In this document: in pieces, positions 3,372 through 57,574 of the stretch
Numbering within the stretch: position 1 is the stretch's first letter
Layout: each line of letters opens with the position of its first letter
Assembly: GCA_024683775.1 (NCBI GenBank)
Contig: GCA_024683775.1_4106.1
Strand: one strand, 5' to 3'
Source of the DNA: a phage
DNA: 64,000 nt
Translations under genes and position numbers: made by a program
The notes under the pieces: model-generated
Databases searched by the model: none
The model's input: the letters and a program-made list of their open reading frames with translations, nothing else
What the model was told of the DNA's origin: nothing

Positions 3372-3433
3372 TCATCCCTCCATTGGTATAATTATTATAA
3401 CGTATTTATTCTAGATAGGTAAAAAAGCACCTT

Positions 3434-32925: not shown

Positions 32926-32961
32926 TAAAAAATCCAGTACTATAATAGTACTGGATTAATT

Positions 32962-34086
32962 TTAATTATCTAAGCCACCAATTACACTGAACTGTGTGGT
33001 AACGTCTGAACTATTATCTATGTAAGTTCTTCTACCAACATAATATAGTTGTCCTTTTGCTTGAATAAAAGTTACGGTCCCTGTATTAAATGTTATAATA
33101 TCATTGTATGTAATGTCAGGTGGTAGTGCTGCTGATAACGCAGTAACTTTACTTAATGCAGCACTAGTACTACCATTTATACCAGCAGCAATACTACCAG
33201 TACCATAGAACTTATTATCTTTACCAATGAATACGTTGGCTGATGCTTGTGTAGCTGATGTTATTGCCTTACCAATTTGGAATGCGGTTCCTATGGTGTA
33301 TGGTGTGCTCCTGGCAGCGTCTATGCTTTGTGTATATCCATCCCCTAGCTGACCATTAACTTTGTCACCACATGAGTATAGAGTACCATTGAGGCTGTAT
33401 ATGATCCCACGGTTAGAGAAGCTAACAGCTTCTGCATTAGTCCATACTGGTGCGGTGTATGAGTTTACACGACTCGCGGTAGTTCCTAGACCTAGTATAC
33501 CATATGTGTTATCACCACATCCAAACCATTGCCCAGAACTGTTTTGATAGAACACTGAACGTTCTGTTGATTCCATGCGTACAGCATCCACAGCACCACT
33601 TTTAACGAACGAAGTGGATGAGGATGTAGTACCAGTACCCAATGCACCATAAGTGTTTGTACCAATCGCATAGATTGATCCTAGTGGTGTCATAACACGT
33701 ATGCAGTTATATCCCAATTGAACTTTACATTCAAATAGGTTGTCCCATATTTCAGGAACAGCAGAAAATAAATTTGTAATTTCGAACCATGATGTTGTCG
33801 AACCAGTTAATCCTATACTGCTTTTGTTTCCTAAAATGAAAACAGTTTTGTCCTTCTTAATTATCCATGATGATAGGAAACCTATCTCACAGCTATGAAC
33901 ATTTGATTCTATTTGGGTAATATAATACTTAACTGTGTTATCACCCATGAATGCCGCAGCACCGGATGCAAAAAGGTTTCCAGTTTGTTTATTTAAAATG
34001 TAGTTATTGTTTCCATATACACTAACATCATAAGAACTTTCTTGTTTTTCGTTCCCATAATCAAATAACAATACGAAAGGTAACAT
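32962..34086 (-). CDS. MLPF-leader RCC1-like beta-propeller paralog A1 (FDYGN subtype)
   Basis: N-terminus MLPFVLLFDYGN; GDNTYGILGLG and GDKVNGQLGDG repeat motifs; AAGGAG RBS. Confidence 0.65.
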   Translation of the reverse strand: MLPFVLLFDYGNEKQESSYDVSVYGNNNYILNKQTGNLFASGAAAFMGDNTVKYYITQIESNVHSCEIGFLSSWIIKKDKTVFILGNKSSIGLTGSTTSWFEITNLFSAVPEIWDNLFECKVQLGYNCIRVMTPLGSIYAIGTNTYGALGTGTTSSSTSFVKSGAVDAVRMESTERSVFYQNSSGQWFGCGDNTYGILGLGTTASRVNSYTAPVWTNAEAVSFSNRGIIYSLNGTLYSCGDKVNGQLGDGYTQSIDAARSTPYTIGTAFQIGKAITSATQASANVFIGKDNKFYGTGSIAAGINGSTSAALSKVTALSAALPPDITYNDIITFNTGTVTFIQAKGQLYYVGRRTYIDNSSDVTTQFSVIGGLDN

Positions 34087-34163
34087 GATAAAATCTCCTT
34101 GTGTTATACTTTATTTAATCATTTTATAATGTACAATTTTACAGCGATTTAATTGAGGTACTC

Positions 34164-34814
34164 ATGAATAAAAGAAGTAAGTTCTATCAAGAATATTTCA
34201 CTAAACATAAACGATTCACAAAAAAATACTTTACATCATCCCACCGACCAGTTGCAAGTTACAAACGTCCTAATACTAACTATCTTGCTGGTGGCAAGTT
34301 TAGTGCAAAGTTCGAATTACTTATGCGTGAAAAGAATATCAAGATGCATTACGCAGAGACGAGAAAAAACTCATCAATTATTTGCTCTGATTTTCTTGAG
34401 TACGGTTGCTTAACTTATAAATTCAATGATGTATATTTGTATATTGATGTTGATTGTAACAGTACTCTTATGTTTGAGATTTCAATTCACCCAAATCACA
34501 ACCGTTATATAAACATTAACTTGATTGATAAAGTACTGATTGGTATATCTAGTACTGATGGTGGTGGATTTGAATTTATTGCTTCAAAATATGATGAAGA
34601 TTTCGTACTTTACCCAGTACTTGATGATGTGAAAGATATTCTCAATTCATTAAAAGGAAGTCAATACAAATTACCTGAAGAACAGCTATTTCAGTACTCA
34701 CTTATTCATGATGATATCGAGATATACTTAGAGTGTGCGAGAATCTTGGAGTATCTTTATAATGAACTAACAACAACTGGTAAAGTGACTGCATTCACAT
34801 TATATAATATGTAA
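34164..34814 (+). CDS. hypothetical protein embedded in the - strand array
   Basis: 216-aa ORF diverging from A1, with TATAAT-like box and GAGG RBS upstream. Confidence 0.5.
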   Translation: MNKRSKFYQEYFTKHKRFTKKYFTSSHRPVASYKRPNTNYLAGGKFSAKFELLMREKNIKMHYAETRKNSSIICSDFLEYGCLTYKFNDVYLYIDVDCNSTLMFEISIHPNHNRYININLIDKVLIGISSTDGGGFEFIASKYDEDFVLYPVLDDVKDILNSLKGSQYKLPEEQLFQYSLIHDDIEIYLECARILEYLYNELTTTGKVTAFTLYNM

Positions 34815-34821
34815 AAGAAAT

Positions 34822-34841
34822 GCCAGTACTCAAGTACTGGC
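34822..34841. terminator. array hairpin GCCAGTACT-CA-AGTACTGGC (bidirectional)
   Basis: perfect 9-bp stem built from two AGTACT sites, between convergent genes. Confidence 0.55.
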
Positions 34842-34847
34842 ATTATA

Positions 34848-35981
34848 TTAAACTGGTGGAGAATTATATGGCTCAAATTTATAAGTTGTCGTAGTAGTAC
34901 CAGCAAGGACGTTGTTAGCTAGTATGTACATAGTCCTGTAGTCGATTACCACCACAGTAATACTACCACCAAAAGCATAGTCTGTTATGTTATTAGTGTT
35001 GAATGGTAAATTAGATGAACTGGTCCATGTATTAGCTGTTGTGCTATTTGTACCATTGGAATAGCCGACACTAGATGTACCAGTTGTCCATAAGTTTCCA
35101 TCATTGAACAACGATACATGGTTAGCTGTATATGATTTATTAGGTATAGAACTATCAATTGGTGTATTCCAAACTTTAGTAACCCATGTTGTAACTTCTG
35201 TATTATTAGTAACGCCATTACCTAATGAACCATTTATTGGTATACCTCTTATATAAGAAGTGTTAGTACTAGGGTCAACATATCCAAATGTATATGTATC
35301 AAATGCAAATTGAAAACAATCAGAACTCGGTAATGTGTACAGTAATGTATATGAAGACGTGATTATTGATGAATTTGTACCGTTCACGCCTTGGTATAAA
35401 ATACCACTAGCCAATATTTGATTATTATTTTTTGTTATAGTGTTCATTAACGGATATGTTTTCACATCACGCACATCATTAGTCACATATGTTTGTGTTG
35501 ATAATGCAACTTTACTACCATTACCTATAACCCCTGTATTTGCACCACTCCCATAAAGTGAACCATCATTCAAAAGAACCATTGTAACATTACCATTTCC
35601 CGTAATTGTTTTAATATTACTAACATCCACCGCAGCAAATACAGTTGATGTTAAATCAGTGAAACGTGTATAATGTGATGTTGTGCCATTGATTGGTGTC
35701 GCAAAACCAGAATACAAAATTCTATTTTCTTTGGTAATAAGGAATGTTCCAGTAACACCGTTTGAATGGATATCAATAATATTATCGCCCATTAATACCC
35801 AATCACTTACGAATGTTGTACCAGCACCCAACCCATATGTCGTATTGTATCCACGTCCATACACTCTACCATCACTGAGTAATGTTACCACACATTGACC
35901 ACCACCACCAAGTATAACTTTTTGGATAGTACTCTTTACTTTTACATTCCCGTACTTAACCATTCTTGCAAAAGGTAACAT
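34848..35981 (-). CDS. MLPF-leader RCC1-like paralog A2 (VKYGN subtype)
   Basis: N-terminus MLPFARMVKYGN; Gly/Ser/Thr/Asn-rich repeats; only 12 nt downstream of A3. Confidence 0.65.
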   Translation of the reverse strand: MLPFARMVKYGNVKVKSTIQKVILGGGGQCVVTLLSDGRVYGRGYNTTYGLGAGTTFVSDWVLMGDNIIDIHSNGVTGTFLITKENRILYSGFATPINGTTSHYTRFTDLTSTVFAAVDVSNIKTITGNGNVTMVLLNDGSLYGSGANTGVIGNGSKVALSTQTYVTNDVRDVKTYPLMNTITKNNNQILASGILYQGVNGTNSSIITSSYTLLYTLPSSDCFQFAFDTYTFGYVDPSTNTSYIRGIPINGSLGNGVTNNTEVTTWVTKVWNTPIDSSIPNKSYTANHVSLFNDGNLWTTGTSSVGYSNGTNSTTANTWTSSSNLPFNTNNITDYAFGGSITVVVIDYRTMYILANNVLAGTTTTTYKFEPYNSPPV

Positions 35982-35993
35982 AATTATTCTCTC

Positions 35994-37112
35994 CTATATT
36001 ACTATTTTTTCTTCAGTATATATTAATGCTTTATCTGATGTAGTGTAGCTAGGTATTGGGAACAATCTACCTGCAACATAACATATGTCATTTTCTATAT
36101 AATATGATGAATATGTACTGTCAAAGAATATAGGCTCTATTGAAGTTGGTGCATTGATCATCTTAGTAAATGCTGGAACCGGTCCAGGTGTAAAACTTGC
36201 ATTTGTACTGGTAAACCCATAATTATCGGAAACTGCTGACACATAATAATCGGTTCCATTCTGGATTATTATTTTTGCTGCAACCGAACTACTATTATAA
36301 ACGATTTTAGGAAATGCAAATGTGGCTGCATTATATGTGAATGGTAACGAACAAGAAACTAAAGTTGCAGTTGCACCAGACACTGATGTTCCATATTTAT
36401 TGTTGACGTTTCCTCTGGCAAATACACCACTAGCGGTATTAAGCACTACAACAGCAACTGTTGCTGAATAACCCAAAACCCCTGTTGCAATTTGGGTAAA
36501 CCCAGTGGAACTAGGTATTTGACTAGCGTTTGGGTTTCCAGAACCATAAAGAACACCAGAATTAGTTAATGCCCATACGTTTGCATACATTAATTTGAAT
36601 GACTTGACATCACTGACTATCGTATTTTTAACAAAAGATGTACTACTACTTGGTGTGCTCATTCCAAATATATATTGCGTATTCGTACCAATGAACCACA
36701 ATTCTCCTAAGTTTGTCAGTACCCCTATACAGTTACGTAACGCATTAACTTGAACATCAATTATTGTACCAGTTACTGCATTAAAAATCGAACTACAATT
36801 AACAAATATATTACTTGTTGGATAACCAAATGCAGTAGTTTCACCGCTGCACATATACTGACCGTCTTTGAGTTTTAAAAATGTCCACGTAGGTGAATAG
36901 TAAAAGTCATCAACATTTTCATATATCAAAGTCCACTTATCAGCCGATGTAGTAACATCACCAAACTTACCATTTGTATTTGGTCCCGCAGCATATAATT
37001 TACCACTTGTTGTTAAGAATAAAATACCACTAGTTCCGTCCGTGACCATTTTACGTATTTTCGTAACTTCTCTTACATTTCCGTACTTAACCATTCTTGC
37101 AAAAGGTAACAT
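35994..37112 (-). CDS. MLPF-leader RCC1-like paralog A3 (VKYGN subtype)
   Basis: N-terminus MLPFARMVKYGN; preceded by conserved hairpin/A+T-box/AAGGAGG cassette. Confidence 0.65.
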   Translation of the reverse strand: MLPFARMVKYGNVREVTKIRKMVTDGTSGILFLTTSGKLYAAGPNTNGKFGDVTTSADKWTLIYENVDDFYYSPTWTFLKLKDGQYMCSGETTAFGYPTSNIFVNCSSIFNAVTGTIIDVQVNALRNCIGVLTNLGELWFIGTNTQYIFGMSTPSSSTSFVKNTIVSDVKSFKLMYANVWALTNSGVLYGSGNPNASQIPSSTGFTQIATGVLGYSATVAVVVLNTASGVFARGNVNNKYGTSVSGATATLVSCSLPFTYNAATFAFPKIVYNSSSVAAKIIIQNGTDYYVSAVSDNYGFTSTNASFTPGPVPAFTKMINAPTSIEPIFFDSTYSSYYIENDICYVAGRLFPIPSYTTSDKALIYTEEKIVI

Positions 37113-37157
37113 AATTCCCTCCTTTATTCTTTATACTATATTTAATCAAAAAGAAAA

Positions 37158-37176
37158 GCCAGTACTCTGTACTGGC
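37158..37176 (-). terminator. array cassette hairpin GCCAGTAC..GTACTGGC plus T-run
   Basis: inverted repeat read directly; T-rich tract follows on the - strand. Confidence 0.5.
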
Positions 37177-37182
37177 ACTATA

Positions 37183-38532
37183 TTACAACAAATGTATTTC
37201 TGTGAGTGTTTGATATGTTACACCGTTGTACACACCTCTCCAATATACCTTACCTTCAGTACTAACCACTAATAATCCATATGTTGTAAACCCAAGAGTA
37301 CCACCAACATACATAGCATCTTTGATTTTAATACCAATGTCTTCATATGTAAATGAAGCGACTGCTCCCGCTTGCCATGAAGGACTAGCATAGTAATCAC
37401 TATAAACACCATGTGCTTTATATATTGATGTTGTTCCGGGTTCAAAAATTACAGTTCCACAGTAGTTCATTCGTATTTTGGTACTGGATGAAGTTGGTAC
37501 ATTTATACCTACATCATCTTTAATCCCTGTAGTTAGGACGTTAAAACCACCCGCTACACGGTTGACGTCATTCGCACCGATTAGAAACATACCAACGTTG
37601 TAGCCCATATAATACACACTACTTGTACCATTCCAGAAAGAAAAACCACCACCATTACCACAGCGATATAGTTGTGAATTTGAGCAGTACATCATGCCTT
37701 CGTTTGTTGCATCAAAATCATCTGCTGTTCCGATTACAGCCACTGTAGTCCACGTTTTAATCACTTGGTTTGTACTAGCTGGTTTTTGTATACCATATCG
37801 TATATTATATCCCTTACCTACGATTGTACCATCTTCTAATTTGGCATAAAGTACAGGTCTATTACCAACAAAATACACATTATTATGTGACATGTCTATT
37901 GTGCATCTTAATGAAACTGCTTTTTGTGTCAATTGATTATCTTTAGTAAAAGAAGTAAAGTAGTAATCTGATGTGGAGTTGTTTATTAAACCTTGAATCG
38001 ACAAACCCATATACCAGATTTCACCATTAGTGTTCAATGCTGCCAAAATACAACTATATTTTGAAGTGTATGCTGGGGTTAATGATGTTGCTGGACCTTT
38101 ATCATATCCACCACAGAATACCATTTCCACAACTTCACCTACGTTAGAAAAATAAGAAGATACATTTATAAAACCATTTGTTATAAAAGGTGCTGTAGTT
38201 ATACTTGAATGTGTGAATATTCCATTTGCATATACACCACAAAAATGATATGAACCATCATTATCTTTAACTATTATTCCATTTGATAGTAGCCAAAAAT
38301 TGTTTACATTTTTTCGTACTAATTCAATTCCTGTACCATTGGTTGGTGTTATACCAAAAGAAACATATTTTGTTTGACCAATACCATATAAATTTCCATT
38401 TGATGCTAATATTGCACCAAACCAATTACCACCACCATTCCTATCATGACCCATACCAATGGAGTCGAATTTCTTTACAGTTGGAACATCTACTGTATTC
38501 CCATAATCAAATAATCTAACAAAAGGTAACAT
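37183..38532 (-). CDS. MLPF-leader paralog A4 (FDYGN subtype, 449 aa)
   Basis: N-terminus MLPFVRLFDYGN; longer, more divergent body. Confidence 0.6.
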   Translation of the reverse strand: MLPFVRLFDYGNTVDVPTVKKFDSIGMGHDRNGGGNWFGAILASNGNLYGIGQTKYVSFGITPTNGTGIELVRKNVNNFWLLSNGIIVKDNDGSYHFCGVYANGIFTHSSITTAPFITNGFINVSSYFSNVGEVVEMVFCGGYDKGPATSLTPAYTSKYSCILAALNTNGEIWYMGLSIQGLINNSTSDYYFTSFTKDNQLTQKAVSLRCTIDMSHNNVYFVGNRPVLYAKLEDGTIVGKGYNIRYGIQKPASTNQVIKTWTTVAVIGTADDFDATNEGMMYCSNSQLYRCGNGGGFSFWNGTSSVYYMGYNVGMFLIGANDVNRVAGGFNVLTTGIKDDVGINVPTSSSTKIRMNYCGTVIFEPGTTSIYKAHGVYSDYYASPSWQAGAVASFTYEDIGIKIKDAMYVGGTLGFTTYGLLVVSTEGKVYWRGVYNGVTYQTLTEIHLL

Positions 38533-38542
38533 ATATTCCTCC

Positions 38543-49478: not shown

Positions 49479-50651
49479 TTATGGTAAAATAATAGCTTGT
49501 AACGAACTCATACCCAATGTTGGAACACTCGCCTGTGGTGCTGGTGCATTCACTTTTGGTGATGAAACCGCATATGTCATTCCTGAACCCAAATCTGGAT
49601 CAAAAACTACAGCACAATAATTCCCACTATATATAAGTCCATTCTTGTATCCTTGTGCACTTTGAATGCATTTCGTGAACGTCCCAATATCTGTAGTGGC
49701 ATTTATTAAGTTCCTCCCACGATAACCGCAGGTGTATATGAAATTATCATCGCCTATGTACATACTAGAATCCCCAGCAGAACTACATAGATACGACATA
49801 TAAGCACGCATGTTTTTAGGAGCAACTGACAATGTACCAGCATAGAATTTATTATTCGAACCCGAAATATCACCATCACCCAAAGCACCAAAACTCCCCC
49901 AACCAGTACCATAATATCTCTTATCACTCAAGAATATAATACAGTTGTTATTACACATCTTGACTTGATATATCAATGAAGGATCAACCCCAGGGAATGA
50001 TTCAGTGTATGTTAGAACAGCCAGATCAGTACTAGCATTACATTGATGATATGTATTAGTACCAGAGGACAATATTGTACCATCAACTAATAGAATCCTC
50101 GAAGTGCCAGTACCAGCAATACAAGCAACAGCATTACCTGTATATATTTGTCTGAAAGTAAAGAAACCAACAGTCTTACTCCCCTGTCCACTCCAACCAG
50201 TATTATCAACACCACATGCCCATACTGAACCATCTTGCATGATCATCATTACACCATAACGTTCTATTGAAATATAGACAATCTTCGTAGTATCAACTGC
50301 ACTAAATCTAGAAGTTATATCAGTCCAAACCTTTACACTCACCGCCGTCGCACCGAAAGTAGGATCTTCCCCTGCTATCATTATCCTACCATTGTTAGTC
50401 AGATACATTGTCTGACTATAACCAGTACTACAAAACTTAACACTATCAGTCTCTGGAACTTTTAACCACTCGTTGTAACGTGTTACGTTAGTGTTATTAC
50501 CTAACTGATAATAGTTATTCATCCCAGATACATATAACACACCATCCTTTATTAAACTATAAGTCGCACTATAGTCACTACAGGTATAACGTGTACCCAC
50601 AGGTGGCTCAACGACGTTCCCATAATCAAACATTCTAACAAAAGGTAACAT
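49479..50651 (-). CDS. MLPF-leader paralog A14 (FDYGN subtype)
   Basis: N-terminus MLPFVRMFDYGN. Confidence 0.65.
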   Translation of the reverse strand: MLPFVRMFDYGNVVEPPVGTRYTCSDYSATYSLIKDGVLYVSGMNNYYQLGNNTNVTRYNEWLKVPETDSVKFCSTGYSQTMYLTNNGRIMIAGEDPTFGATAVSVKVWTDITSRFSAVDTTKIVYISIERYGVMMIMQDGSVWACGVDNTGWSGQGSKTVGFFTFRQIYTGNAVACIAGTGTSRILLVDGTILSSGTNTYHQCNASTDLAVLTYTESFPGVDPSLIYQVKMCNNNCIIFLSDKRYYGTGWGSFGALGDGDISGSNNKFYAGTLSVAPKNMRAYMSYLCSSAGDSSMYIGDDNFIYTCGYRGRNLINATTDIGTFTKCIQSAQGYKNGLIYSGNYCAVVFDPDLGSGMTYAVSSPKVNAPAPQASVPTLGMSSLQAIILP

Positions 50652-50724
50652 AATAAAATCTCCGTAATTAAATTATATAGTATTTACAAAAAATACCAGT
50701 ACATATTTCAGTACTGACCTATTA

Positions 50725-51846
50725 TTAAAAGGGCAACGGTAACTCAGTAAAAGTACTTACGTCCGGTAAACCATACATTGAATTAGCATCACCACAGTAA
50801 TACCACTTCGTAGAATCATGTACCACCGATAAACGCTGTGCACATAACACTTCCTGTATGTCATTAAACACCATCGGGACTAACTCATATGTATCCGCAT
50901 ATGAAGATTCACCACCACTCGCATGAAAAGTATTCGTCCCAGCATAAAATAACTGATTAGTGTTCTTACCCACAGCAAATGTCATCAATATCCCATCATT
51001 CGCCCATAAAGAAGAAAACTTATCAACACTACCAGAAAGCTCTGTGTAAGTACTCGTAATGGCACTCGCAGCCGCCGCATTACCCATCTGTTTATTCAAG
51101 TTCTGTCCAGCAATAAAATATCTCGTGCGTGCACTAGAATCAGTATATAATAACCCAGTGTTCGTAGTCATCATTCCAATGTCCTTAATCGTCATACCAG
51201 TCTGTGAATAACTTAGATACGAAGTTAAACTACCATTATTACCCAACGAACCGTTATCACTCATGCCACAACGATGTAATATACCACTTGTATCAACGTA
51301 GATAGTACTAACTAAACTCGTATACAACTCTTGTACATTATTCGCAATAAACACAGCAGTCGCCTTATTAGTAACCCCACCAAATGATAGGTTATTATCA
51401 AATCCCTTAGCGTATAATTGATTATTAGTAGTAACTAACCCAATCGCGTAATAAGATATTTTCATATCCCTTACAGTACTCAAATCTACTACCCCAAATT
51501 GATGCGTAACATCTGTCCATGTGAAAATCTGTGCACTACCAACACCACCCGTTTCAAACCATTTGTCACCACAGTACAATATGCGATTATCCTTAGTAAA
51601 GATAACTGTTACCAATCCACTACCACACGCAAACTTTACATCACTTCTAACCTTCGTCCAATCAAGTACATAGGTAGTGGTGTTATTACCTATACCTAAC
51701 TTGCCATAACGGTTATAACCACGCACCCACAAATCACCACTCTTAGTAATTAATAGTAATGCGTCTCCTGTACTTATTATTCGAAATCCCGAACTAGGAT
51801 CAGGTACTTCATTTCCATAATCAAACATTCTAACAAAAGGTAACAT
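50725..51846 (-). CDS. MLPF-leader paralog A15 (FDYGN subtype)
   Basis: N-terminus MLPFVRMFDYGN; body closely related to A18. Confidence 0.65.
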   Translation of the reverse strand: MLPFVRMFDYGNEVPDPSSGFRIISTGDALLLITKSGDLWVRGYNRYGKLGIGNNTTTYVLDWTKVRSDVKFACGSGLVTVIFTKDNRILYCGDKWFETGGVGSAQIFTWTDVTHQFGVVDLSTVRDMKISYYAIGLVTTNNQLYAKGFDNNLSFGGVTNKATAVFIANNVQELYTSLVSTIYVDTSGILHRCGMSDNGSLGNNGSLTSYLSYSQTGMTIKDIGMMTTNTGLLYTDSSARTRYFIAGQNLNKQMGNAAAASAITSTYTELSGSVDKFSSLWANDGILMTFAVGKNTNQLFYAGTNTFHASGGESSYADTYELVPMVFNDIQEVLCAQRLSVVHDSTKWYYCGDANSMYGLPDVSTFTELPLPF

Positions 51847-51891
51847 AATTCCCTCCTTTATTCATTATACTATATTTAATCAAAAATAAAA

Positions 51892-51910
51892 GCCAGTACA
51901 GAGTACTGGC
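51892..51910 (-). terminator. array cassette hairpin
   Basis: GCCAGTACAGAGTACTGGC inverted repeat. Confidence 0.45.
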
Positions 51911-51917
51911 ATAGTAT

Positions 51918-53045
51918 TCAAAAAGGTAAATCAATTTGCTTAGTAATAATAGTATCTAACGGTATTGAACACAATGAGAAATTCTTTCCACCCGTATTTT
52001 CAGGATTATATCCATTCATCCATACATTATTACCTTCGTAAAATGTATTCCAGTATAAAGACCCACTATATCGTGTATTCGAATTGAACGATGTAAAATT
52101 GAATTCTTGAAATGCTGTAAAATATGGAAGGGAACTTGAACTACTTCCCGTAAATGGGGTATGCCCAGTTGCTATTAGTTTGTTTGTATCTGCATTAATT
52201 AAAAATACAACACTAGTCGAATAGTCCAACGAATCAGGATGATATATATTACTCATATCACCTATAGTAAAACCAACATCAAAAACTTTACTATGTGCAC
52301 CACTACCAGCAAAAGTAGTTCCAGTTGCATATATTTTATTATCAGATGTTATCATTACAAAACCAACACCAGAAACAAAACTGCATTTTATATCATAAGA
52401 TATATCATCAAACAACGGAACAAATGTGGTTGCATCACCCGATGTTGCTTTAACTTGAAAGCTGTTATTTGAACCTGAACCATATACAGTTCCATCGTTT
52501 TTAATCTTAAACAATGTATCGCCAAGGTAACCGCCAAATATATTATCCACATTAGTGTCAAGTACAGTCCACGCTGAAACATAATTTTTATGTCCTAAAC
52601 CTAATGTACCACTTCGATTCCATCCTCTTCCATAAAGTGTTCCGTCTTTCATTAATATAAATGCTGTATAACCACATAACATTTTTTTAATTTGGGTAAC
52701 ATCTATACCAGTGAAATACACAGCCCAGTCAGTATATCCTTGTTGGAAAGTATTAGAATTCGTGAATGCATATGTTGAACCTGAACCATATATTTTATCA
52801 CCTTTAATAACAACGGAAAACGATCCTAACCATAAGTCATCAACTTCAGTTGTGATTTGTTGAACTGCTCCTAACGATACAAACTGTGTACTTAAACCCG
52901 CATTATAGTTTGAATCTTCACCGTGTGCATATACAGTGCCATCTTGCATTAGAAACATTTCAAGAGTGTAACTAACAACACTTTTCTTTATATTATTAAC
53001 TTCGATTATATTCCCATAATCAAACATTCTAACAAAAGGTAACAT
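51918..53045 (-). CDS. MLPF-leader paralog A16 (FDYGN subtype)
   Basis: N-terminus MLPFVRMFDYGN. Confidence 0.65.
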   Translation of the reverse strand: MLPFVRMFDYGNIIEVNNIKKSVVSYTLEMFLMQDGTVYAHGEDSNYNAGLSTQFVSLGAVQQITTEVDDLWLGSFSVVIKGDKIYGSGSTYAFTNSNTFQQGYTDWAVYFTGIDVTQIKKMLCGYTAFILMKDGTLYGRGWNRSGTLGLGHKNYVSAWTVLDTNVDNIFGGYLGDTLFKIKNDGTVYGSGSNNSFQVKATSGDATTFVPLFDDISYDIKCSFVSGVGFVMITSDNKIYATGTTFAGSGAHSKVFDVGFTIGDMSNIYHPDSLDYSTSVVFLINADTNKLIATGHTPFTGSSSSSLPYFTAFQEFNFTSFNSNTRYSGSLYWNTFYEGNNVWMNGYNPENTGGKNFSLCSIPLDTIITKQIDLPF

Positions 53046-53087
53046 AATTCCCTCCTTTATTCATTATACTATATTTAATCAAAAAAA

Positions 53088-53106
53088 GCCAGTATCAAGT
53101 ACTGGC
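53088..53106 (-). terminator. array cassette hairpin
   Basis: GCCAGTATCAAGTACTGGC inverted repeat. Confidence 0.45.
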
Positions 53107-53114
53107 ATATTAAT

Positions 53115-54263
53115 TTACTGCACAAATGACATATCGACTTCGGTATAATTAAGAACGTTCTGTCCAGCACTACCACCCATTACTACAAATGAAGCACCCG
53201 AATAATATAACTTCGAAGTGTCAGTAAGTATAAGTGAACCAGATGGAGTGCGTACCAAATTACACGAAGTATTAAACGAAGTATATGAAGGAGTATAGGA
53301 GTACTGATTATTATTATTACCAACACCTAATTGCCCAAACCTATTCGATCCAGAAGCATATAGAACTTCATCTGCTTTGACAATATGTGATGCCATGTTA
53401 CCAACACAAGTATATAGAGTATAAACTCCTGAACTCAATAATGTCGGAGTTTTATATTGTATATCAGTAGAAGAGGAAGTACCACCTGTACCAAATTCGT
53501 TCCCATATTGTGCACCGAACTGTTTACCACAAGCGTACAAATTATTATCCGATTTGATAAAAAATGTACTCTGATAACTTACATTAAAATCTATAACATC
53601 CGAAGAAATCATCGTCACCCCAGTAATAGAAGTTTGATTGCCCGTGCCCAACTGGTAGTAATAGTTAAAACCACAACCCCATAAAGTATTATCTTCTCGC
53701 AAATAAATGTTACCAACAGCCTTTTTAACCGAAGTTATAGTATCTACTCTTTTGAATGTGTTAAAAGAATTAATGTTTGTGCCATCACCAAATGATGATA
53801 TGTTCGATATATTGTTAGCTCCACAACAATACAATGTACCATCGTTTGTTATCAAATTCACCTTCATATCATAAAAACTACTCATGTATTTTATATCAGA
53901 AACATTAATACCACTTGATGTTATCCACGTAGTACAGTCCGTCCACAAAGTTTTTCTATCAGTTACACCAGTGAATGCCTTCGTGTTACCAGTGATAAAA
54001 ACTTTTCCAGTACCTTTCTCTTCATACAATTGACAATCACTACTGTTATCTTCCAATAGAACTCGTTTAACATTCTCCGCACAAAGAATAAATTTACTCG
54101 ATGCTACACCTGTACCAGTACCCCAATTCGTCGCAGAAGATGCATACAACTTGTCAGTATAAGTATCATGAAGATACATAGAATCACTGGAATATATTTT
54201 ATAACGACCAGAGTTGGTAGGAGCTTCATTTCCATAATCAAACATTCTTACAAAAGGTAACAT
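53115..54263 (-). CDS. MLPF-leader RCC1-like paralog A17 (FDYGN subtype)
   Basis: start set at MLPFVRMFDYGN at 54263; GSNRFGQLGVG motif. Confidence 0.65.
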   Translation of the reverse strand: MLPFVRMFDYGNEAPTNSGRYKIYSSDSMYLHDTYTDKLYASSATNWGTGTGVASSKFILCAENVKRVLLEDNSSDCQLYEEKGTGKVFITGNTKAFTGVTDRKTLWTDCTTWITSSGINVSDIKYMSSFYDMKVNLITNDGTLYCCGANNISNISSFGDGTNINSFNTFKRVDTITSVKKAVGNIYLREDNTLWGCGFNYYYQLGTGNQTSITGVTMISSDVIDFNVSYQSTFFIKSDNNLYACGKQFGAQYGNEFGTGGTSSSTDIQYKTPTLLSSGVYTLYTCVGNMASHIVKADEVLYASGSNRFGQLGVGNNNNQYSYTPSYTSFNTSCNLVRTPSGSLILTDTSKLYYSGASFVVMGGSAGQNVLNYTEVDMSFVQ

Positions 54264-54307
54264 ATTCCCTCCCTTATTCATTATACTATATTTAATCAAA
54301 AAGAAAA

Positions 54308-54327
54308 GCCAGTACTCAAGTACTGGC
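54308..54327 (-). terminator. array cassette hairpin
   Basis: GCCAGTACTCAAGTACTGGC perfect inverted repeat. Confidence 0.5.
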
Positions 54328-54333
54328 CTGTAT

Positions 54334-55470
54334 TTAAATTATTGTTGGTAATGGTAATGGTATAAATTCATCACTCGATGGCAAACCATATAACGTAGTT
54401 GCATTTCCAGAATAATACCATCCAGTTGAATCTTGCACTATAGATAGATAGGCTAACGATACCACCTTTGTTATATCATTAAACCCGTGTGGTACTTCTT
54501 TGAATGCAGATGAATATTCAACACCAGGATCACCAGAAGATAGTGTATTGTTAGTACCAGCATAATATAAAGTATTGCCATCTGTGCTTATAGCAAAAGA
54601 AAGAACAGAGTTATTCATATCACTCCACAAATCCCTAAACCTGCCTCTATATCCGGTTAATTCTGTATACGAATATACGTTTGTGGTATTTGAAGAAGAA
54701 TTACCTAGTTGATAATTTCTATTTTGACCTGCTATAACATATCTAGTGATACCATTAGTATCATAATATAATATACCAGAGTTTAATGTTGACATACCAA
54801 CTGCACATTCGGATGCAAATTCGGGAGCAGAGTACAAATTATAAGAAGTTAAATTTGTGCTAGTACCCAATGCTCCAGTATTGCTTATACCACAGCGGTA
54901 GTAACCACCAGTAGTACTAGAATATATAGTACCAGATAGAGAAGTGTAGAATTTTGAAACATTTGACGCAACTAATACAGCATTAACTTTGCTTGTTGAA
55001 CCACCAAATGATTGGTTATTATCATATCCTTTAGCATATAATCTATTATCATTTGTAAGTAATCCTACACAATAATAAGTTATTTTCATTTCACGAACTG
55101 TGCTTAGATTCACTGCACTAAATTGTGTCGTAACATCTTTCCATGTAACAACTTTAGAACTTGTCGAACCACCAGATTCAAACCATTGATCACCACAGTA
55201 GAAAATTTTATTATCTACAGTTAATACAACGCATACTAAATTACTAGCACAAGCAAACTTAACATCATCTCTAACTTTAGTCCACTCGGTTACATTCACT
55301 ATAGTATCAGTTCCTATACCTAATTTGCCATACGCATTATTACCACGCACCCATAATTCATTATCCTCGGTTATTAGTAATAATGAATTAGCACCTGCAA
55401 CAATATCACGTATTTTTAGTTTATCTGGTGCTACGTTCCCGTACTTAACCATTCTTGCAAAAGGTAACAT
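54334..55470 (-). CDS. MLPF-leader paralog A18 (VKYGN subtype), first gene of the array
   Basis: N-terminus MLPFARMVKYGN; extended -10-like TGATATAAT and AAGGAG RBS upstream. Confidence 0.65.
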   Translation of the reverse strand: MLPFARMVKYGNVAPDKLKIRDIVAGANSLLLITEDNELWVRGNNAYGKLGIGTDTIVNVTEWTKVRDDVKFACASNLVCVVLTVDNKIFYCGDQWFESGGSTSSKVVTWKDVTTQFSAVNLSTVREMKITYYCVGLLTNDNRLYAKGYDNNQSFGGSTSKVNAVLVASNVSKFYTSLSGTIYSSTTGGYYRCGISNTGALGTSTNLTSYNLYSAPEFASECAVGMSTLNSGILYYDTNGITRYVIAGQNRNYQLGNSSSNTTNVYSYTELTGYRGRFRDLWSDMNNSVLSFAISTDGNTLYYAGTNNTLSSGDPGVEYSSAFKEVPHGFNDITKVVSLAYLSIVQDSTGWYYSGNATTLYGLPSSDEFIPLPLPTII

Positions 55471-55520
55471 ATTTCTTCTCCTTTATTCATTATATCATAT
55501 TTACCTCAAAAAGAAAACCC

Positions 55521-55549
55521 TTGACACCCTTTCAGTACTGATGTACTAT
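55521..55549 (+). promoter_or_regulatory. sigma70-like promoter TTGACA-N17-TACTAT in the divergent hub
   Basis: hexamers read directly, 25 nt upstream of the first mini-protein gene. Confidence 0.5.
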
Positions 55550-55574
55550 AGAAGGAATATAAGGAGAACTGCAC

Positions 55575-55802
55575 ATGACAAATACTTTTAAGTACTACCT
55601 CAATACTCTAAATGAACTAGAGTACGCGAAGTTTCTCGCGGATAGTTCGTGGCTAATTGAGCTAAAAACACATAACAGTACTGGATGTAACCTTATGCTG
55701 AACAATGCACTTGATACCCTTGTAGTGAGTATTTTACACAGCACCATCTGCGGGGATAGCAATAAACAATTATCAAAAATCTTAGTACTGGTAGCTCTAT
55801 GA
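55575..55802 (+). CDS. mini-protein paralog C1
   Basis: 75 aa; N-terminal MTNTFKYYLNTL; AAGGAG RBS. Confidence 0.5.
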   Translation: MTNTFKYYLNTLNELEYAKFLADSSWLIELKTHNSTGCNLMLNNALDTLVVSILHSTICGDSNKQLSKILVLVAL

Positions 55803-56011
55803 ACACTATGAACATTGAACAGTACTACATTGATGCACTACCAACAAAAGGTCTACGAGAAAGCCTACTGTATACACAAAATAATTATATAAACTTCAAA
55901 CATTGTCCTAAACTCTTGAACTCGTACAGGAATAATAAAATAAGAAATGCTGTACAAGGGGTAGAAAGTATGCAATACTATTACATCCTAACCCTTTTAA
56001 TCGAGCACTAA
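55799..56011 (+). CDS. mini-protein paralog C2
   Basis: 70 aa; N-terminal ...EQYYIDALP; ATGA overlap. Confidence 0.5.
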   Translation: MNTMNIEQYYIDALPTKGLRESLLYTQNNYINFKHCPKLLNSYRNNKIRNAVQGVESMQYYYILTLLIEH

Positions 56012-56012
56012 T

Positions 56013-56198
56013 ATGTATAAAGAATTCTACTGTAGTAAGCTGCACAAACAATACAGAGATTCATTTCCCAATGAACCTATGGATATGAATAGTCCCTTTT
56101 ATAAATTTGACTTCAGACTGGAGACACGTTATGCAATAGAACATCAATTTCCTGAAACTAAGTACTTATCTATCATGAACCTCATCTTTAAGTTCTAA
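56013..56198 (+). CDS. mini-protein paralog C3
   Basis: 61 aa; N-terminal MYKEFY. Confidence 0.45.
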   Translation: MYKEFYCSKLHKQYRDSFPNEPMDMNSPFYKFDFRLETRYAIEHQFPETKYLSIMNLIFKF

Positions 56199-56209
56199 AA
56201 GAGTACTAT

Positions 56210-56422
56210 ATGAAAACTATGAACATACACCAGTACTACTTAGATATTCTCCCTAAAGATGTACAGTTCATCCTTAAACAAGAATACAGTACTTTAAAAA
56301 ACCTTAAAAGAACCGCACCGAATGTATTAATCCTGCACCAAGAAAATGTAGTTGATAATATTCTACAAGGTGTACCAGGGACCGAGTACTTTAACATAAT
56401 AAGGCTAATTACATTACCATGA
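56210..56422 (+). CDS. mini-protein paralog C4
   Basis: 70 aa; close relative of C2. Confidence 0.5.
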   Translation: MKTMNIHQYYLDILPKDVQFILKQEYSTLKNLKRTAPNVLILHQENVVDNILQGVPGTEYFNIIRLITLP

Positions 56423-56604
56423 ATCATATATTATACTATTACCAAAATCTATCCGACAGGGACAAGTACACCCACAACTCCAATGTATGGTACTACAAAC
56501 GCGGTAGTATAAGAGACAAACAACATTACTTCTGTATTGCTATAAAAGAAGCACTAACAACTAAGTACACGTACAGAGCAGTACTGAAACTTATTGATAT
56601 GTAA
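56419..56604 (+). CDS. mini-protein paralog C5
   Basis: 61 aa; C-terminal YTYRAVLKLIDM. Confidence 0.45.
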   Translation: MNHILYYYQNLSDRDKYTHNSNVWYYKRGSIRDKQHYFCIAIKEALTTKYTYRAVLKLIDM

Positions 56605-56614
56605 AGAGAATACT

Positions 56615-56797
56615 ATGAGCATTGAATTGTACTTAAGTAAATTACAGCCTGGCGATAGATTCATCTACAATAAGTTCGAATTCAACTACAAGAACGGGAG
56701 CAACAAATATCGTCGAGGATACCTATATACAAGCACAAGAGATGCACAAAACGAAAAGTACACATACAGAGAAGTACTTAAACTAATCTCTATTTGA
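56615..56797 (+). CDS. mini-protein paralog C6
   Basis: 60 aa from ATG 56615; C-terminal YTYREVLKLISI. Confidence 0.45.
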   Translation: MSIELYLSKLQPGDRFIYNKFEFNYKNGSNKYRRGYLYTSTRDAQNEKYTYREVLKLISI

Positions 56798-56805
56798 GGT
56801 AATAT

Positions 56806-56991
56806 ATGAATACATTTGAGTACTATACAAATAAACTATCTATGCCTGAAAGATCTCATCTCTATGTGTGGAGAAATGCGTATAAAAGCGGCAATAAACT
56901 TATACAAAGAAATTCCCTTACAGTGTGTACAAATTTAATTAAAGCAGAGTACCGCACATATATTGAAGTACTCAAACTGATAGCAATATAA
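56806..56991 (+). CDS. mini-protein paralog C7
   Basis: 61 aa; MNTFEYY...EVLKLIAI. Confidence 0.5.
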   Translation: MNTFEYYTNKLSMPERSHLYVWRNAYKSGNKLIQRNSLTVCTNLIKAEYRTYIEVLKLIAI

Positions 56992-56999
56992 GGTACTCT

Positions 57000-57179
57000 A
57001 TGCAAGAATTCTATATCTATAACCTCCAGCACAAAGATAGATACAACTATAATAAATTCCAAAGGTACTACACAGTCGGGAACAAAAGAGATAAAAAACG
57101 TTATCTACTCTCGTGTACAGTAGAAGCACAAAACGAAAAGTACACGTACAGAGAAGTACTTAAACTAATCTTAATCTAA
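57000..57179 (+). CDS. mini-protein paralog C8 (59 aa, below ORF-track cutoff)
   Basis: hand translation MQEFYIYNLQHK...YTYREVLKLILI. Confidence 0.45.
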   Translation: MQEFYIYNLQHKDRYNYNKFQRYYTVGNKRDKKRYLLSCTVEAQNEKYTYREVLKLILI

Positions 57180-57186
57180 GGTAGAC

Positions 57187-57375
57187 ATGAACACTTTTGA
57201 GTACTACTTCAATAAACTAAACCACATAGAACAAAGTATGCACAACTCATTTATTCAGCACCATCAATCATCTGCACATGGAATTAAAAATATATCGATT
57301 GAGATTATCACTACCCGTGTACTGTCATCTGAACGTTATATGTATATTGATGTACTGAAACTCATCTCTATGTAA
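57187..57375 (+). CDS. mini-protein paralog C9
   Basis: 62 aa; MNTFEYY...DVLKLISM. Confidence 0.5.
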   Translation: MNTFEYYFNKLNHIEQSMHNSFIQHHQSSAHGIKNISIEIITTRVLSSERYMYIDVLKLISM

Positions 57376-57383
57376 GGAATAAT

Positions 57384-57563
57384 ATGCAAGAATACTATAT
57401 AGAACACATAAGCATTAAAGACCGTTTCATGTACGACACCTTCGTGAAGTACTACAACCTGGCAACTAATAGTACTAAAAATATTAATCTCAATAGCTGC
57501 ATTCATCACGCACTAACAAAAGATAATCCCTTCAGGGAAATCCTCGCTCTCGCATCTGTATAA
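57384..57563 (+). CDS. mini-protein paralog C10 (59 aa, below ORF-track cutoff)
   Basis: hand translation MQEYYIEHISIKDRF... Confidence 0.4.
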   Translation: MQEYYIEHISIKDRFMYDTFVKYYNLATNSTKNINLNSCIHHALTKDNPFREILALASV

Positions 57564-57574
57564 AGGAAAACCAA

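Follow-up and report, generated by a model that had tools for sequence, protein, structure and literature searches.

What are the similar intergenic sequences that recur through a long and highly variable array of paralogous genes in a jumbo coliphage genome, and what might they do for the phage that carries them? The window analysed here, a stretch of 64,000 nucleotides, comes from a phage of the Asteriusvirus type (PBECO4/121Q/phAPEC6, Rak2-like) and holds 18 such genes of about 1.1 kb each, A to R (Table 1). They encode RCC1-like beta-propellers of 370-450 aa that match the Pfam families RCC1, RCC1_2 and RLD; an AF2 model of an array protein (pLDDT 83.9) finds UVR8, HERC2 and RCC1 in Foldseek at TM 0.66-0.77, and in phAPEC6 the array proteins are virion-associated, as found by mass spectrometry. 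Overall, we believe the recurring cassette is probably an intrinsic terminator, a late-class promoter lacking a -35 element and a ribosome-binding site, which together insulate transcription units and provide a homologous-recombination joint for the shuffling of whole genes.

A conserved intergenic cassette is present, far beyond chance. It spans about 70 bp between most array genes and combines terminator, promoter and ribosome-binding elements in a fixed order: the stop codon, a hairpin with a stem of 7-10 bp (GCCAGTAC-loop-GTACTGGC), a T-run, a TAAATA-N3-TATAAT box, GGAG and the ATG. Full cassettes lie at 11 junctions, with the box alone at two more sites and a terminal hairpin alone at another two. 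The 28-nt box ATTAAATATAGTATAATGAATAAAGGAG has eight matches at no more than one mismatch, all on the minus strand and six of them exact, where none is expected, and the six copies are identical despite a mean identity of only 21% aa among the paralogs. The core TAAATA-N3-TATAAT matches 17 times in the window against 3.5 expected, and 26 terminator-like hairpins fall in 36.0-55.9 kb against 7.7 expected. An independent repeat finder returned a 109-nt family of eight copies and an 85-nt family of 14. Repetition of a cassette between genes, as the first-pass annotation had proposed, is thereby borne out, and the conservation extends past the ribosome-binding site to hairpin, box and T-run across junctions. 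The literal hairpin that it placed in most spacers, GCCAGTACT-nn-AGTACTGGC, fared less well: it occurs only three times, at 34822, 44666 and 54308, and the remaining hairpins are variants with loops of 3-8 nt and stems of 7-10 bp. Nor are 'two AGTACT sites' a separate feature of the hairpin, since a palindrome inside a stem necessarily appears in both arms. The word AGTACT itself is 7-23x over-represented throughout the whole clade.

Table 1. Array genes, cassettes and related elements in the window (hairpin energies in kcal/mol; ATG, start of the downstream gene).
Feature	Coordinates	Strand	Hairpin	Box	Remarks
Array A..R	32962..55470	-			18 paralogous RCC1-like genes
ATGs, A-I	55470, 54263, 53045, 51846, 50651, 49403, 48262, 47051, 45872	-			I frameshifted
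ATGs, J-R	44622, 43371, 42204, 40963, 39722, 38532, 37112, 35981, 34086	-			N (39722) disrupted
Head-of-array promoter region	55471..55553	-	no stable hairpin on folding (z -0.19)	GTAAATATGATATAAT 55489-55503	then SD; same spacer holds a divergent plus-strand sigma-70-like promoter TTGACA-17-TACTAT, 55521-55549
Full cassette A>B	54264..54333	-	54306-54329 (-14.8)	54280-54294	T-run, SD; ATG 54263
Full cassette B>C	53046..53114	-	53088-53106	53063-53077	ATG 53045
Full cassette C>D	51847..51917	-	51892-51910 (-13)	51864-51878	ATG 51846
Variant cassette D>E	50652..50724	-	GTCAGTAC-8 nt loop-GTACTGGT 50695-50718	GTAAATACTATATAAT 50672-50686	SD GGAG; ATG 50651
Variant cassette E>F	49404..49478	-	ATACCAGTAC-loop-GTGCTGGTAT 49447-49474 (-15.3)	GTAAATACATTATAAT 49425-49439	ATG 49403
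Cassette-less F>G	48263..48272	-			10-nt spacer; TAA stop overlaps SD (TAAGGAG); operon-internal
Cassette-less G>H	47052-47059	-			operon-internal
Full cassette H>I	45873..45941	-	45917-45935	45890-45904	ATG 45872
Full cassette I>J	44623..44692	-	44663-44688 (-16.2)	44639-44653	ATG 44622
Full cassette J>K	43372..43443	-	degenerate, about 43417-43440 (-4.8)	intact, 43390-43404	ATG 43371
Cassette-less K>L	42205-42213	-			operon-internal
Full cassette L>M	40964..41034	-	41007-41029 (-14.4)	40980-40994	ATG 40963
Full cassette M>N	39723..39793	-	39767-39789	39740-39754, with TATAAC	ATG 39722
Full cassette O>P	37113..37182	-	37158-37176	37130-37144, with TATAAA	ATG 37112
Cassette-less P>Q	35982-35993	-			operon-internal
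Terminal cassette remnant past Q	34799..34847	-	perfect, 34819-34844 (-16.2)	degenerate TACATATTATATAAT 34799-34813	T-run; no SD or ATG next; plus-strand gene 34164-34814 ends there
Promoter-like box before R	34087..34125	-	none	TAAATAAAGTATAAC 34103-34117	SD
Terminator of R	32931..32957	.	ATCCAGTACT-ATTAT-AGTACTGGAT, then T6		between convergent genes; member of CCAGTACT stem family
Sole perfect TAAATA-N3-TATAAT box outside array	3372..3408	-		3394-3408

Conservation continues beyond the start codon. The first 36 nt (12 codons) of each array gene belong to the repeated module and encode a tag, MLPF(V/A)R(M/L)(FD/VK)YGN; mean pairwise identity is 94% over nt 1-12 and about 80% over nt 13-36, and then drops to about 30%, against a chance value of 27%. 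With the cassette, the tag makes up a module of some 100-110 bp, near-identical among genes otherwise unrelated at the DNA level, so that the earlier description of an intergenic unit of about 65 bp holds for the cassette but stops 36 nt short of the module's end in each gene. Where a cassette is present the tag contributes to the joint; where there is none, the joint consists of the tag alone. The same N-terminal tag is common to RCC1-like, Kelch and LamG virion proteins.

The hairpin and T-run have the anatomy of an intrinsic terminator. Hairpins lie 6-12 nt past each stop codon on GC-containing stems; 11 of 12 have folding energies of -9.6 to -16.2 kcal/mol (z -2 to -5.3) and a T-run downstream, and the T-run is found at every hairpin, on the transcribed strand only. 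Among the distinct stop-to-box segments of six phages, 40 of 43 fold at -7.9 to -17.5 kcal/mol, with loops free to vary and stems retained, and compensatory stem changes are seen in Salmonella phage Munch (GCTAGTAC/GTACTAGC and GACAGTACT/AGTACTGTC). For the related phage vB_EcoM_G17, the same hairpins are annotated in GenBank as ARNold terminators. We would therefore expect Rho-independent termination to close the transcript of each upstream gene, and a strong GGAG(G) ribosome-binding site to open translation of the next. Cassette positions predict the units A|B|C|D|E|F-G-H|I|J|K-L|M|N-O|P-Q|R, in which most genes would be insulated late transcription units with promoters of their own, and a few operons of two or three genes, with short spacers, would be translationally coupled. 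The first-pass annotation had likewise foreseen terminator, promoter and Shine-Dalgarno cassettes with a mixture of mono- and polycistronic units, which this anatomy supports; it recognised most cassette sites but missed those before 54263 and 49403, and of the five junctions it listed as lacking a cassette, two (its A8-A7 and A12-A11) do carry one. Cassette-less junctions, with spacers of 5-36 nt, precede the genes at 48262, 47051, 42204, 35981 and 38532.

The class of the predicted promoter is a more delicate matter. The box is kept as TAAATA-N3-TATAAT across genera, in Munch and in IMG/VR contig 359777, and as TAAATA-N3-ATA in CBB- and GAP32-like genes, although spacers and UTRs differ; it matches 73 times inside six arrays, against six matches, mostly chance, in 122 kb of flanks and a single match in the 50-kb structural region of phAPEC6. 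No conserved -35 at 16-18 nt and no TGn extension accompany it in the window, and a sigma-70 scan for -35/-10 pairs overlaps a cassette only once (CTGACA-17-TATAGT, 43423-43395), where the -35 is supplied by the degenerate J>K hairpin; lacking a -35 element, the predicted promoter is not sigma-70-like. The T4-type late consensus is matched in the TAAATA core only, the box reading ATTAAATA or TGTAAATA and not TATAAATA. The motif (T)ATAAATA stands upstream of the phAPEC6 genes for the major capsid protein, scaffold, protease and baseplate. Among the putative late promoters tabulated in the CBB paper are GTAAATACATAATA, ahead of CBB_552, and GTAAATACAGGATA, ahead of CBB_553, and both of these genes bear the tag. 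The most likely reader of such a late-class promoter would be host core RNA polymerase with a gp55-like late sigma factor of the phage.

It is possible, but in our judgment unlikely, that the cassette instead carries a host sigma-70 promoter, with TATAAT as its -10 and the T-run acting in the manner of an UP element, and that expression is early or constitutive. The perfect TATAAT hexamer is fixed in nearly all copies and has T-rich sequence upstream, and the comparable elements published for T4-like phages are sigma-70 elements (PMC2839356, PMC4122927). In addition, a strictly conserved downstream TATAAT is no general feature of the late promoters of other phAPEC6 structural genes, so that the hexamer might be a sigma-70 -10, might serve in both capacities, or might be read by the sigma-70-family factor that the phage itself encodes at 8146-9111. 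Against early expression, the genuine early promoters of the window are canonical (TTGACA-N16/17-TATAAT, as in TTGACA-16-TATAAT at 61040), the gene products are virion proteins, and the CBB authors class the promoters of CBB_552 and CBB_553 as late. TAAATA, moreover, is as invariant as TATAAT among the 13 window copies, and the scan picks up none of the cassette promoters, its one overlap, at J>K, drawing its -35 from the hairpin.

The comparison of related phages is consistent with a second role for the late-class cassette. Six arrays hold 85 genes in 38 gene families, and gene order is shared only in part. Homology blocks of five related phages have 37 ends inside the array; each lies at -49..+75 nt relative to an ATG, and gene bodies contain none (0/37). 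Block ends necessarily run through any conserved segment; the result shows whole gene bodies to be the units of exchange and does not locate every crossover. Internal breakpoints all map either to the cassette or to the opening ~45 nt of the coding sequence, in keeping with the first-pass suggestion that the cassettes are recombination substrates, and the cassette marks the points of whole-gene swaps between related phages. The same gene can be preceded by a cassette in one genome and lack it in the next. The variant O>P cassette also stands before gene Q in EC.P1 and vB_Ec-M-J, which in EC.P1 maps a crossover to a 32-nt identical tag. Orthologous gene bodies bear genome-typical tags, and different cassettes in different genomes; tag identity is 85.4% within and 84.0% between genomes, a small excess reached by 5 of 2000 permutations. 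Because the module is the only homology between non-orthologous neighbours, it would be the crossover site for the recombination machinery of the phage, presumably of T4 type (phAPEC6 encodes UvsX, gp46/47-like proteins and EndoVII), and crossovers within it would delete, insert, replace or reorder whole gene bodies. The same recombination would homogenise cassettes and tags within a genome, although tags specific to a lineage might equally have co-evolved with a docking partner, in place of gene conversion.

We think it very unlikely that the hairpins are instead targets of site- or structure-specific recombination, in the manner of integron attC, or sites for a CAGTACTG-recognising protein. 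Such targets would fit the imperfect palindrome that bounds each gene-sized unit, the loops in both orientations (CTTGAG vs CTCAAG, GTACTTGATAC vs GTATCAAGTAC), the half-hairpin at the EC.P1 junction Z>O, and the 7-23x excess of the stem word AGTACT in the clade, as expected of a protein-binding site. Nevertheless, exchange has occurred with no hairpin at F>G, F>d and F>H, P was deleted within the 32-nt tag, stems are unrelated in CBB- and GAP32-like cassettes, and the strand-restricted T-runs are those of terminators, while T4-type homologous recombination is well served by 100 bp of near-identical sequence (PMC2839356). Array genes are tandem paralogs and phage mRNAs are stabilised by 3' stem-loops, but a passive relic of recent duplication, or a 3' stabiliser or processing site beside an A+T box with no promoter function, is hardly credible when gene bodies have diverged to ~30% ungapped nt identity (near chance) with cassette and tag still at 80-100%, the two-part box persists in other genera although its spacers differ, and the box is also found hairpin-free, both at array heads and ahead of an unrelated virion gene.

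Among known elements, the nearest is the PeSL/PmSL cassette (promoter-early/-middle stem-loops) of the T4-like phages RB49/phi1, T4/PST and KVP40/nt-1 (Arbiol et al. 2010 PMC2839356; Comeau et al. 2014 PMC4122927). It shares the order of upstream stop codon, stem-loop terminator, promoter, Shine-Dalgarno and ATG, the conservation over about 100 bp, the many copies clustered in a hyperplastic region and lying at the edges of insertions, deletions and replacements among close relatives, the degraded 'half' elements, and the proposed mechanism, in which the recombination system of the phage itself acts on homologous copies and a shuffled gene carries along its own promoter and terminator. With that precedent already known, what is new here is the conserved 5' coding tag as part of the joint, which the first-pass annotation missed, and a predicted promoter that has no -35 and is not sigma-70-like; with a TAAATA core of the T4/Rak2-type late class and a fixed TATAAT, the array cassette would be the 'late' counterpart (PlSL) of PeSL/PmSL. 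It also differs in flanking ~1.1-kb paralogous virion-associated beta-propeller genes and not small early ORFans, and in its clade, Rak2-like jumbo phages (Asteriusvirus) and not Straboviridae. PeSLs have been shown by experiment to act as promoters and terminators and to yield mini-circles, whereas for the array cassettes promoter and terminator activity is predicted.

Other systems offer partial parallels. Lambdoid 'morons' (an intrinsic terminator, then a promoter) and integron cassettes are likewise self-contained units with their own expression signals or a hairpin-forming repeat at their bounds, but morons have no conserved flanking repeats able to mediate exchange, and integron cassettes are promoterless and need an integrase and attC; the array units carry putative promoters, and no integrase is implicated. 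The T4 internal-protein (IP) genes share a conserved N-terminal capsid-targeting sequence. The polymorphic IP locus (Repoila et al. 1994, as cited in PMC4122927) likewise comprises highly variable, exchangeable genes for virion-packaged proteins, in which a short 5' stretch of coding sequence and the regulatory sequence at the flanks are conserved, and whose shuffling between related phages is proposed to alter host range. IPs, however, are small and head-internal and have their tag cleaved by the prohead protease, in contrast to the array's propellers of 370-450 aa. Finally, the one perfect box outside the array precedes a solitary virion structural gene on the minus strand (2214-3371; phrog_10468, E 4.6e-157) with its own terminator at 2188-2206.

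The spacers of the array of 18 minus-strand RCC1-like paralogs (genes A to R in order of transcription, X>Y denoting a junction) carry a conserved cassette that comprises a hairpin, a T-run, a box of the form TAAATA-N3-TATAAT and a Shine-Dalgarno (SD) sequence, with 13 copies in the 22 kb of the array. The first-pass annotation had proposed such an element, and it is borne out by counts that exceed chance for the 28-mer box (8 matches in the window, 0 expected), for TAAATA-N3-TATAAT (17 in the window, 3.5 expected) and for terminator-like sites (26 found, 7.7 expected), as well as by independent repeat finding, which returned families of 109 nt (8 copies) and 85 nt (14 copies). Read on the minus strand, the array ATGs are preceded by canonical cassettes, variant cassettes or partial copies (see the table), with cassette-less junctions besides. 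The literal hairpin string GCCAGTACTnnAGTACTGGC, which had been taken as the repeated unit, does not hold up: this 20-mer has just three exact copies, and the hairpin family is thus defined by structure, not by string. The idea of cassette-less junctions stands in part, in that two of the five so named were misassigned, the true set being F>G, G>H, K>L, P>Q and fragment>O. A 104-bp 'repeat_region' entered without comment in the GenBank record of UE-S1 fits the size of the module described below. No Rfam family matched anywhere in the window.

Coordinates of the cassettes and of other features in the window
Feature	Position	Strand	Description
Canonical cassettes (n = 9)	before starts 54263, 53045, 51846, 45872, 44622, 43371, 40963, 39722, 37112	-	stop codon, GCCAGTAC-loop-GTACTGGC, TTTTCTTTTT, (G)ATTAAATATAGTATAATGAATAAAGGAG(G), 5-7 nt, ATG
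Variant cassettes (n = 2)	before starts 50651, 49403	-	longer loop; GTAAATAC-N2-TATAAT
Partial copies, box without hairpin	array head (55470); before last gene (34086)		
Partial copy, hairpin with decayed box	34819-34844 (hairpin 34822-34841)		after gene Q
Terminator of last gene R	32931-32957		hairpin of the same family as the cassettes
Loop orientation pair	53088-53106; 45917-45935		GCCAGTACTTGATACTGGC vs GCCAGTATCAAGTACTGGC, exact reverse complements
Loop orientation pair	54308-54327; 44666-44685		CTTGAG vs CTCAAG, exact reverse complements
Tag, examples	51811-51846; 37077-37112		first 36 nt of array genes
Sole sigma-70 scan match overlapping a cassette	43423-43395		-35 from the degenerate J>K hairpin
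Canonical early promoter	61040-61067		TTGACA-16-TATAAT
Sigma-70-family factor	8146-9111	+	phrog_351; Pfam regions 2 and 3 only
Virion structural gene	2188-3408	-	phrog_10468; box 3394-3408; terminator hairpin 2188-2206
Gene I	44693-45872	-	frameshift at T6 run near 45700
Gene N	38569-39722	-	264 aa plus 97-aa fragment in other frame
Gene inside the array	34164-34814	+	216 aa; phrog_34359; no Pfam match
ATPase gene	29648-30418	+	256 aa; P-loop/AAA/STAND-like
Small paralogs	55500-64000	+	~60-75 aa, dense; some start MNTFEYY
Hairpin with 14-bp stem	61197-61230		stem made of CAGTACTG
Densest AGTACT region	56000-64000		

Conservation of the spacers beyond the ribosome-binding site is likewise upheld, and it also runs past the ATG. 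ATG-anchored mean pairwise nucleotide identity of the array genes is 94-96% over nt 1-12 and about 80% over nt 13-36, falling to about 45% over nt 37-48 and about 30% beyond, where chance is 27%. From this profile the repeated module consists of hairpin, T-run, box, SD and the first 12 codons, about 100-110 bp in all. Recent duplication as the source of the similarity is ruled out, since the gene bodies, the remainder of each CDS, are near chance identity. All 18 genes open with ATG TTA CCT TTT (MLPF), and the 12 codons encode an N-terminal tag, M(L/I)PFxR(M/L/I)xxY(G/A)N. In the AlphaFold (AF2) model of gene D, residues 1-18 have pLDDT below 50, and the tag is accordingly modeled as a flexible peptide outside the propeller. 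The tag is common to the RCC1-like genes and to a tandem array of Kelch/LamG proteins of phage CBB, annotated 'structural protein' in GenBank; the CBB publication includes mass spectrometry of virions. When the tag is searched as a degenerate DNA pattern in IMG/VR, most Rak2-like jumbo contigs turn out to have such arrays.

The gene bodies themselves have both the repeat signatures and the fold of seven-bladed RCC1-like beta-propellers. Pfam finds RCC1, RCC1_2 and RLD repeats, with PF00415 and PF13540 above cut-offs in several paralogs; the gene D model, built from 16 window paralogs, is a seven-bladed RCC1-like propeller (pLDDT 83.9), for which Foldseek returns UVR8, the HERC2 RLD and RCC1 (E 1e-18 to 1e-15, TM up to 0.77). 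Records annotate these genes as 'regulator of chromosome condensation / DNA condensation protein', protein identity among the paralogs is 14-51% (mean 21%), and in phAPEC6 the array proteins are present in virions by mass spectrometry. Megablast of the array region against phage genomes matched only Asteriusvirus-type jumbo coliphages and Salmonella phages, with relatives including PBECO4, 121Q, phAPEC6, G17, Turkey3 and EC.P1 at 84-98% identity. Any single record covers 15-34% of the 22-kb query, and the array is thus a mosaic.

The cassette hairpins have the features of intrinsic (Rho-independent) terminators: a G+C-containing stem of at least 5 bp, a loop of 3-8 nt and an immediate U-run, placed after a stop codon on the transcribed strand. 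They lie 6-12 nt past the stop codon with the T-run on the transcribed strand alone, and 11 of 12 in the window fold at -9.6 to -16.2 kcal/mol. Across six phages, 40 of the 43 distinct stop-to-box segments form a stable hairpin, and the stems are conserved while the loops are free to vary, even occurring in both orientations. Compensatory stem variants are found in Salmonella phage Munch (GCTAGTAC/GTACTAGC and GACAGTACT/AGTACTGTC), CBB- and GAP32-like genes have unrelated stems at the equivalent position, and in the G17 record (MK327931) the array's hairpins were marked by its authors as ARNold terminators (-10 to -12.8 kcal/mol). The two pairs of exact reverse-complement forms in the window suggest flip-type inversions or template switching at palindromes.

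With regard to the box, we lean toward a late-class promoter of the T4/Rak2 type, which has no -35 element. Rak2-like phages are far relatives of T4 with a gp55-like late sigma factor and a sigma-70-family factor (PMC5259590). Both a gp55-like sigma factor and the motif before virion genes are found in phAPEC6, where gp237c has the annotation late sigma factor and the genes for major capsid protein, scaffold, protease and baseplate are preceded by (T)ATAAATA. Compared with the late consensus TATAAATA, the TAAATA core of the box is invariant and the first two positions differ (ATTAAATA, TGTAAATA, GGTAAATA); in the CBB table of putative late promoters (Table S7), (A/C/G)TAAATA is accepted, and the entries include GTAAATACATAATA in front of CBB_552 and GTAAATACAGGATA in front of CBB_553, two genes that bear the tag in our analysis. 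Together with the virion mass spectrometry of array proteins, the phAPEC6 motif and these tag-bearing CBB genes argue for the late class. TAAATA and TATAAT are kept at N3 spacing across the window copies (O>P reads TATAAA), and both hexamers persist in Munch and in an uncultivated 359,777-bp contig despite different spacers and UTRs, a pattern that points to selection acting on both boxes and not to homogenisation alone. Box matches number 73 inside arrays and 6 outside, the latter mostly chance; the one perfect extra-array box in the window stands before a solitary virion structural gene on the minus strand. That gene lies inside a plus-strand block of small genes, and its own terminator hairpin is unrelated to those of the cassettes.

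The main alternative is that the box is a sigma-70 -10 element, or that it has dual use. The sigma-70-family factor encoded in the window has no detected region 4, and for this reason it might recognise promoters without a -35. A full sigma-70 promoter model for the cassettes is rejected because the -35 is missing: no conserved -35 element and no TGn extension is present in the cassettes, and a sigma-70 scan detected no cassette promoters, with one overlapping match. Early promoters elsewhere in the window are canonical, and a TTGACA-17-TACTAT diverges from the array head. A chimallivirus (Goslar-type) identity, and with it promoters of a phage multisubunit RNA polymerase, was dropped when BLAST placed the phage in Asteriusvirus (Rak2-like). 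No regulatory RNA structure is predicted in the 5'UTR plus the first 45 nt (z -1.35 to +0.83).

If the cassettes terminate and initiate as predicted, their positions support the proposed mix of single-gene units and operons of two to three genes, with A, B, C, D, E, I, J, M and R standing alone and F-G-H, K-L, N-O and P-Q grouped. Within the operons, spacers measure 5-13 nt and the stop codon overlaps the SD (TAAGGAG), an arrangement suggestive of translational coupling at these internal junctions. Given the degenerate J>K hairpin, J-K-L may be co-transcribed as well.

Gene order has been compared between the window and the complete arrays of five relatives (G17, UE-S1, Turkey3, vB_Ec-M-J and EC.P1), and the suggestion that the cassettes are recombination substrates for gene gain, loss and shuffling is well supported. 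Gene bodies clustered at 75% or more amino-acid identity form 38 families among the 85 genes of the six arrays, which hold 9-18 genes each in an order only partly shared. In blastn of the window against each of the five, all 37 internal block ends fall within -49 to +75 nt of a start codon, and none lies inside a gene body. For genes B, D, G, H and Q, the cassette found in one phage corresponds to a short spacer in another, and downstream of gene F, beyond an identical 3' end, SD and tag, the next gene is G, d or H. The O>P cassette, recognizable by its TATAAA, stands before Q in EC.P1, which places a P-deleting crossover within the 32-nt identical tag. Hairpin loops at the orthologous junctions C>D and H>I differ between phages, and half a hairpin is left at junction Z>O of EC.P1. 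Orthologous bodies of 90-98% identity bear tags that differ by genome (gene B, VRMFD, ARMMN or GRMVK; gene O, VRLFD, ARMIK or ARMVK), and the observed excess of genome-typical tag types was reached in 5 of 2000 permutations. Taken together, the block ends and the swaps of junctions and tags show whole gene bodies as the units of exchange and the module as the joint, with cassettes and tags apparently exchanged or homogenised themselves. The phAPEC6 genome encodes UvsX, gp46/47-like proteins and EndoVII. The module accounts for the fact that Asteriusvirus genomes, 97-98% identical elsewhere, vary most in the 'chromosome condensation/RCC1' arrays.

Two genes of the array are disrupted. In gene I the frameshift leaves 59 aa and a stop, with the rest of the propeller in another frame; the split recurs in EC.P1 and reflects either a pseudogene or, possibly, programmed slippage. 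Gene N has its disruption in common with G17, and the vB_Ec-M-J orthologue is intact (392 aa). Together these disruptions point to birth-and-death turnover. The plus-strand gene inside the array stops 8 nt from the hairpin after gene Q, and its position is identical in Turkey3, EC.P1, UE-S1 and G17.

The closest known elements are the PeSL/PmSL of T4-like phages, conserved stretches of ~100 bp with stop codon, stem-loop terminator, promoter, SD and ATG, which cluster in hyperplastic regions, border indels and replacements and occur as degraded half-elements, and for which promoter and terminator activity and recombination mini-circles were shown experimentally (PMC2839356, PMC4122927). The Asteriusvirus cassette is alike in anatomy and behaviour: a stem-loop adjoins a promoter followed by SD and the next start codon, many copies cluster in a hyperplastic region, and copies stand at the borders of indels and replacements between close relatives. 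One defining feature of PeSL is missing, namely the sigma-70-like early promoter (-35 TTGACA/TTTACW, N17, -10, AT-rich upstream). Unlike PeSL, the module also extends into coding sequence, flanks large paralogous virion genes and occurs in Rak2-like phages, and the element is best described, provisionally, as a late-promoter, tag-linked variant of the PeSL recombination/regulatory cassettes. A second analogue is the T4 internal-protein locus, whose genes likewise have an N-terminal targeting segment in common. Comeau et al. cite that locus as an earlier example (PMC4122927). Integrons differ in having an integrase gene, attC-type imperfect palindromes with conserved R/L boxes and promoterless cassettes, whereas here the hairpin is a simple 8-bp stem with a T-run, every unit has a promoter, and exchange occurs at hairpin-less junctions too. 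Terminators (G17) and the repeat (UE-S1) are on record as bare features in two GenBank records, and one paper notes differences in 'chromosome condensation regulators' among close relatives; in the literature searched we found no earlier description of the Asteriusvirus cassettes or of the AGTACT enrichment in these phages. Overall, the original observation is confirmed and its interpretation supported, with refinements, and exact coordinates are now available for promoter, terminator and recombination experiments.

The 105-nt module occurs at 397 places in 44 phage records, with 4-15 copies per genome in Asteriusvirus-type records and 1-2 in weakly matching ones. Strong matches are all in Asteriusvirus-type E. 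coli or Salmonella phages; Munch, 7t3, SE_PL and a Klebsiella phage match partially, and in CBB the match is confined to the tag-coding part. The tag and the AGTACT signature are more surprising leads than the cassette itself. The tag is a candidate virion-docking peptide and, if it is such a signal, would be usable for foreign-domain display on these phages. Cassette stems are built from the AGTACT word (CAGTACTG). A joint reading, tentative and in our estimate rather doubtful, is that cassette and tag form a recombinase-free 'plug-and-display' joint across Rak2-like jumbo phages, docking and a role for an CAGTACTG-binding protein included. A gene for an RCC1-like, Kelch or LamG binding domain, once recombined in, would automatically be terminated, transcribed late and translated; its product would then dock on the virion via the disordered peptide M(L/I)PFxRxxxY(G/A)N; and CAGTACTG, the stem word over-represented clade-wide, could also be recognised by a clade-specific DNA-binding protein with a stimulatory effect on exchange. 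Were this so, it would allow integron-like rapid change of 9-19 virion surface proteins, perhaps for host or environment adhesion. The element itself carries the PeSL idea, that regulatory cassettes also serve as linkers for recombination, beyond the small early ORFans of T4-like phages to a virion-protein array, plausibly late-expressed, of another clade, the jumbo phages described here.

AGTACT, in the context (C)AGTACT(G), is the sole outlier among all 64 six-base palindromes in the window, with 218 occurrences against about 22 expected (about 10x). Sites fall in each of the three reading frames and are denser in intergenic DNA; as a codon pair, AGT-ACT is found 83 times against 16.7 expected, and an order-3 Markov model expects 90 AGTACT. 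Codon usage as the source of the excess is ruled out by these frame, intergenic, codon-pair and Markov counts. Every Rak2-like lineage sampled, CBB, Munch, 121Q and uncultivated contigs among them, has a 5-23x excess, and T4 stands at 0.35x. Conservation of AGTACT sites between relatives shows a weak trend (0.78 vs 0.70; 0.81 vs 0.74).

No tRNAs were found in the window. Homologues of the ATPase are inconsistently annotated as 'clamp loader of DNA polymerase' or 'transcriptional regulator FleQ', and the region of small plus-strand paralogs is probably early.
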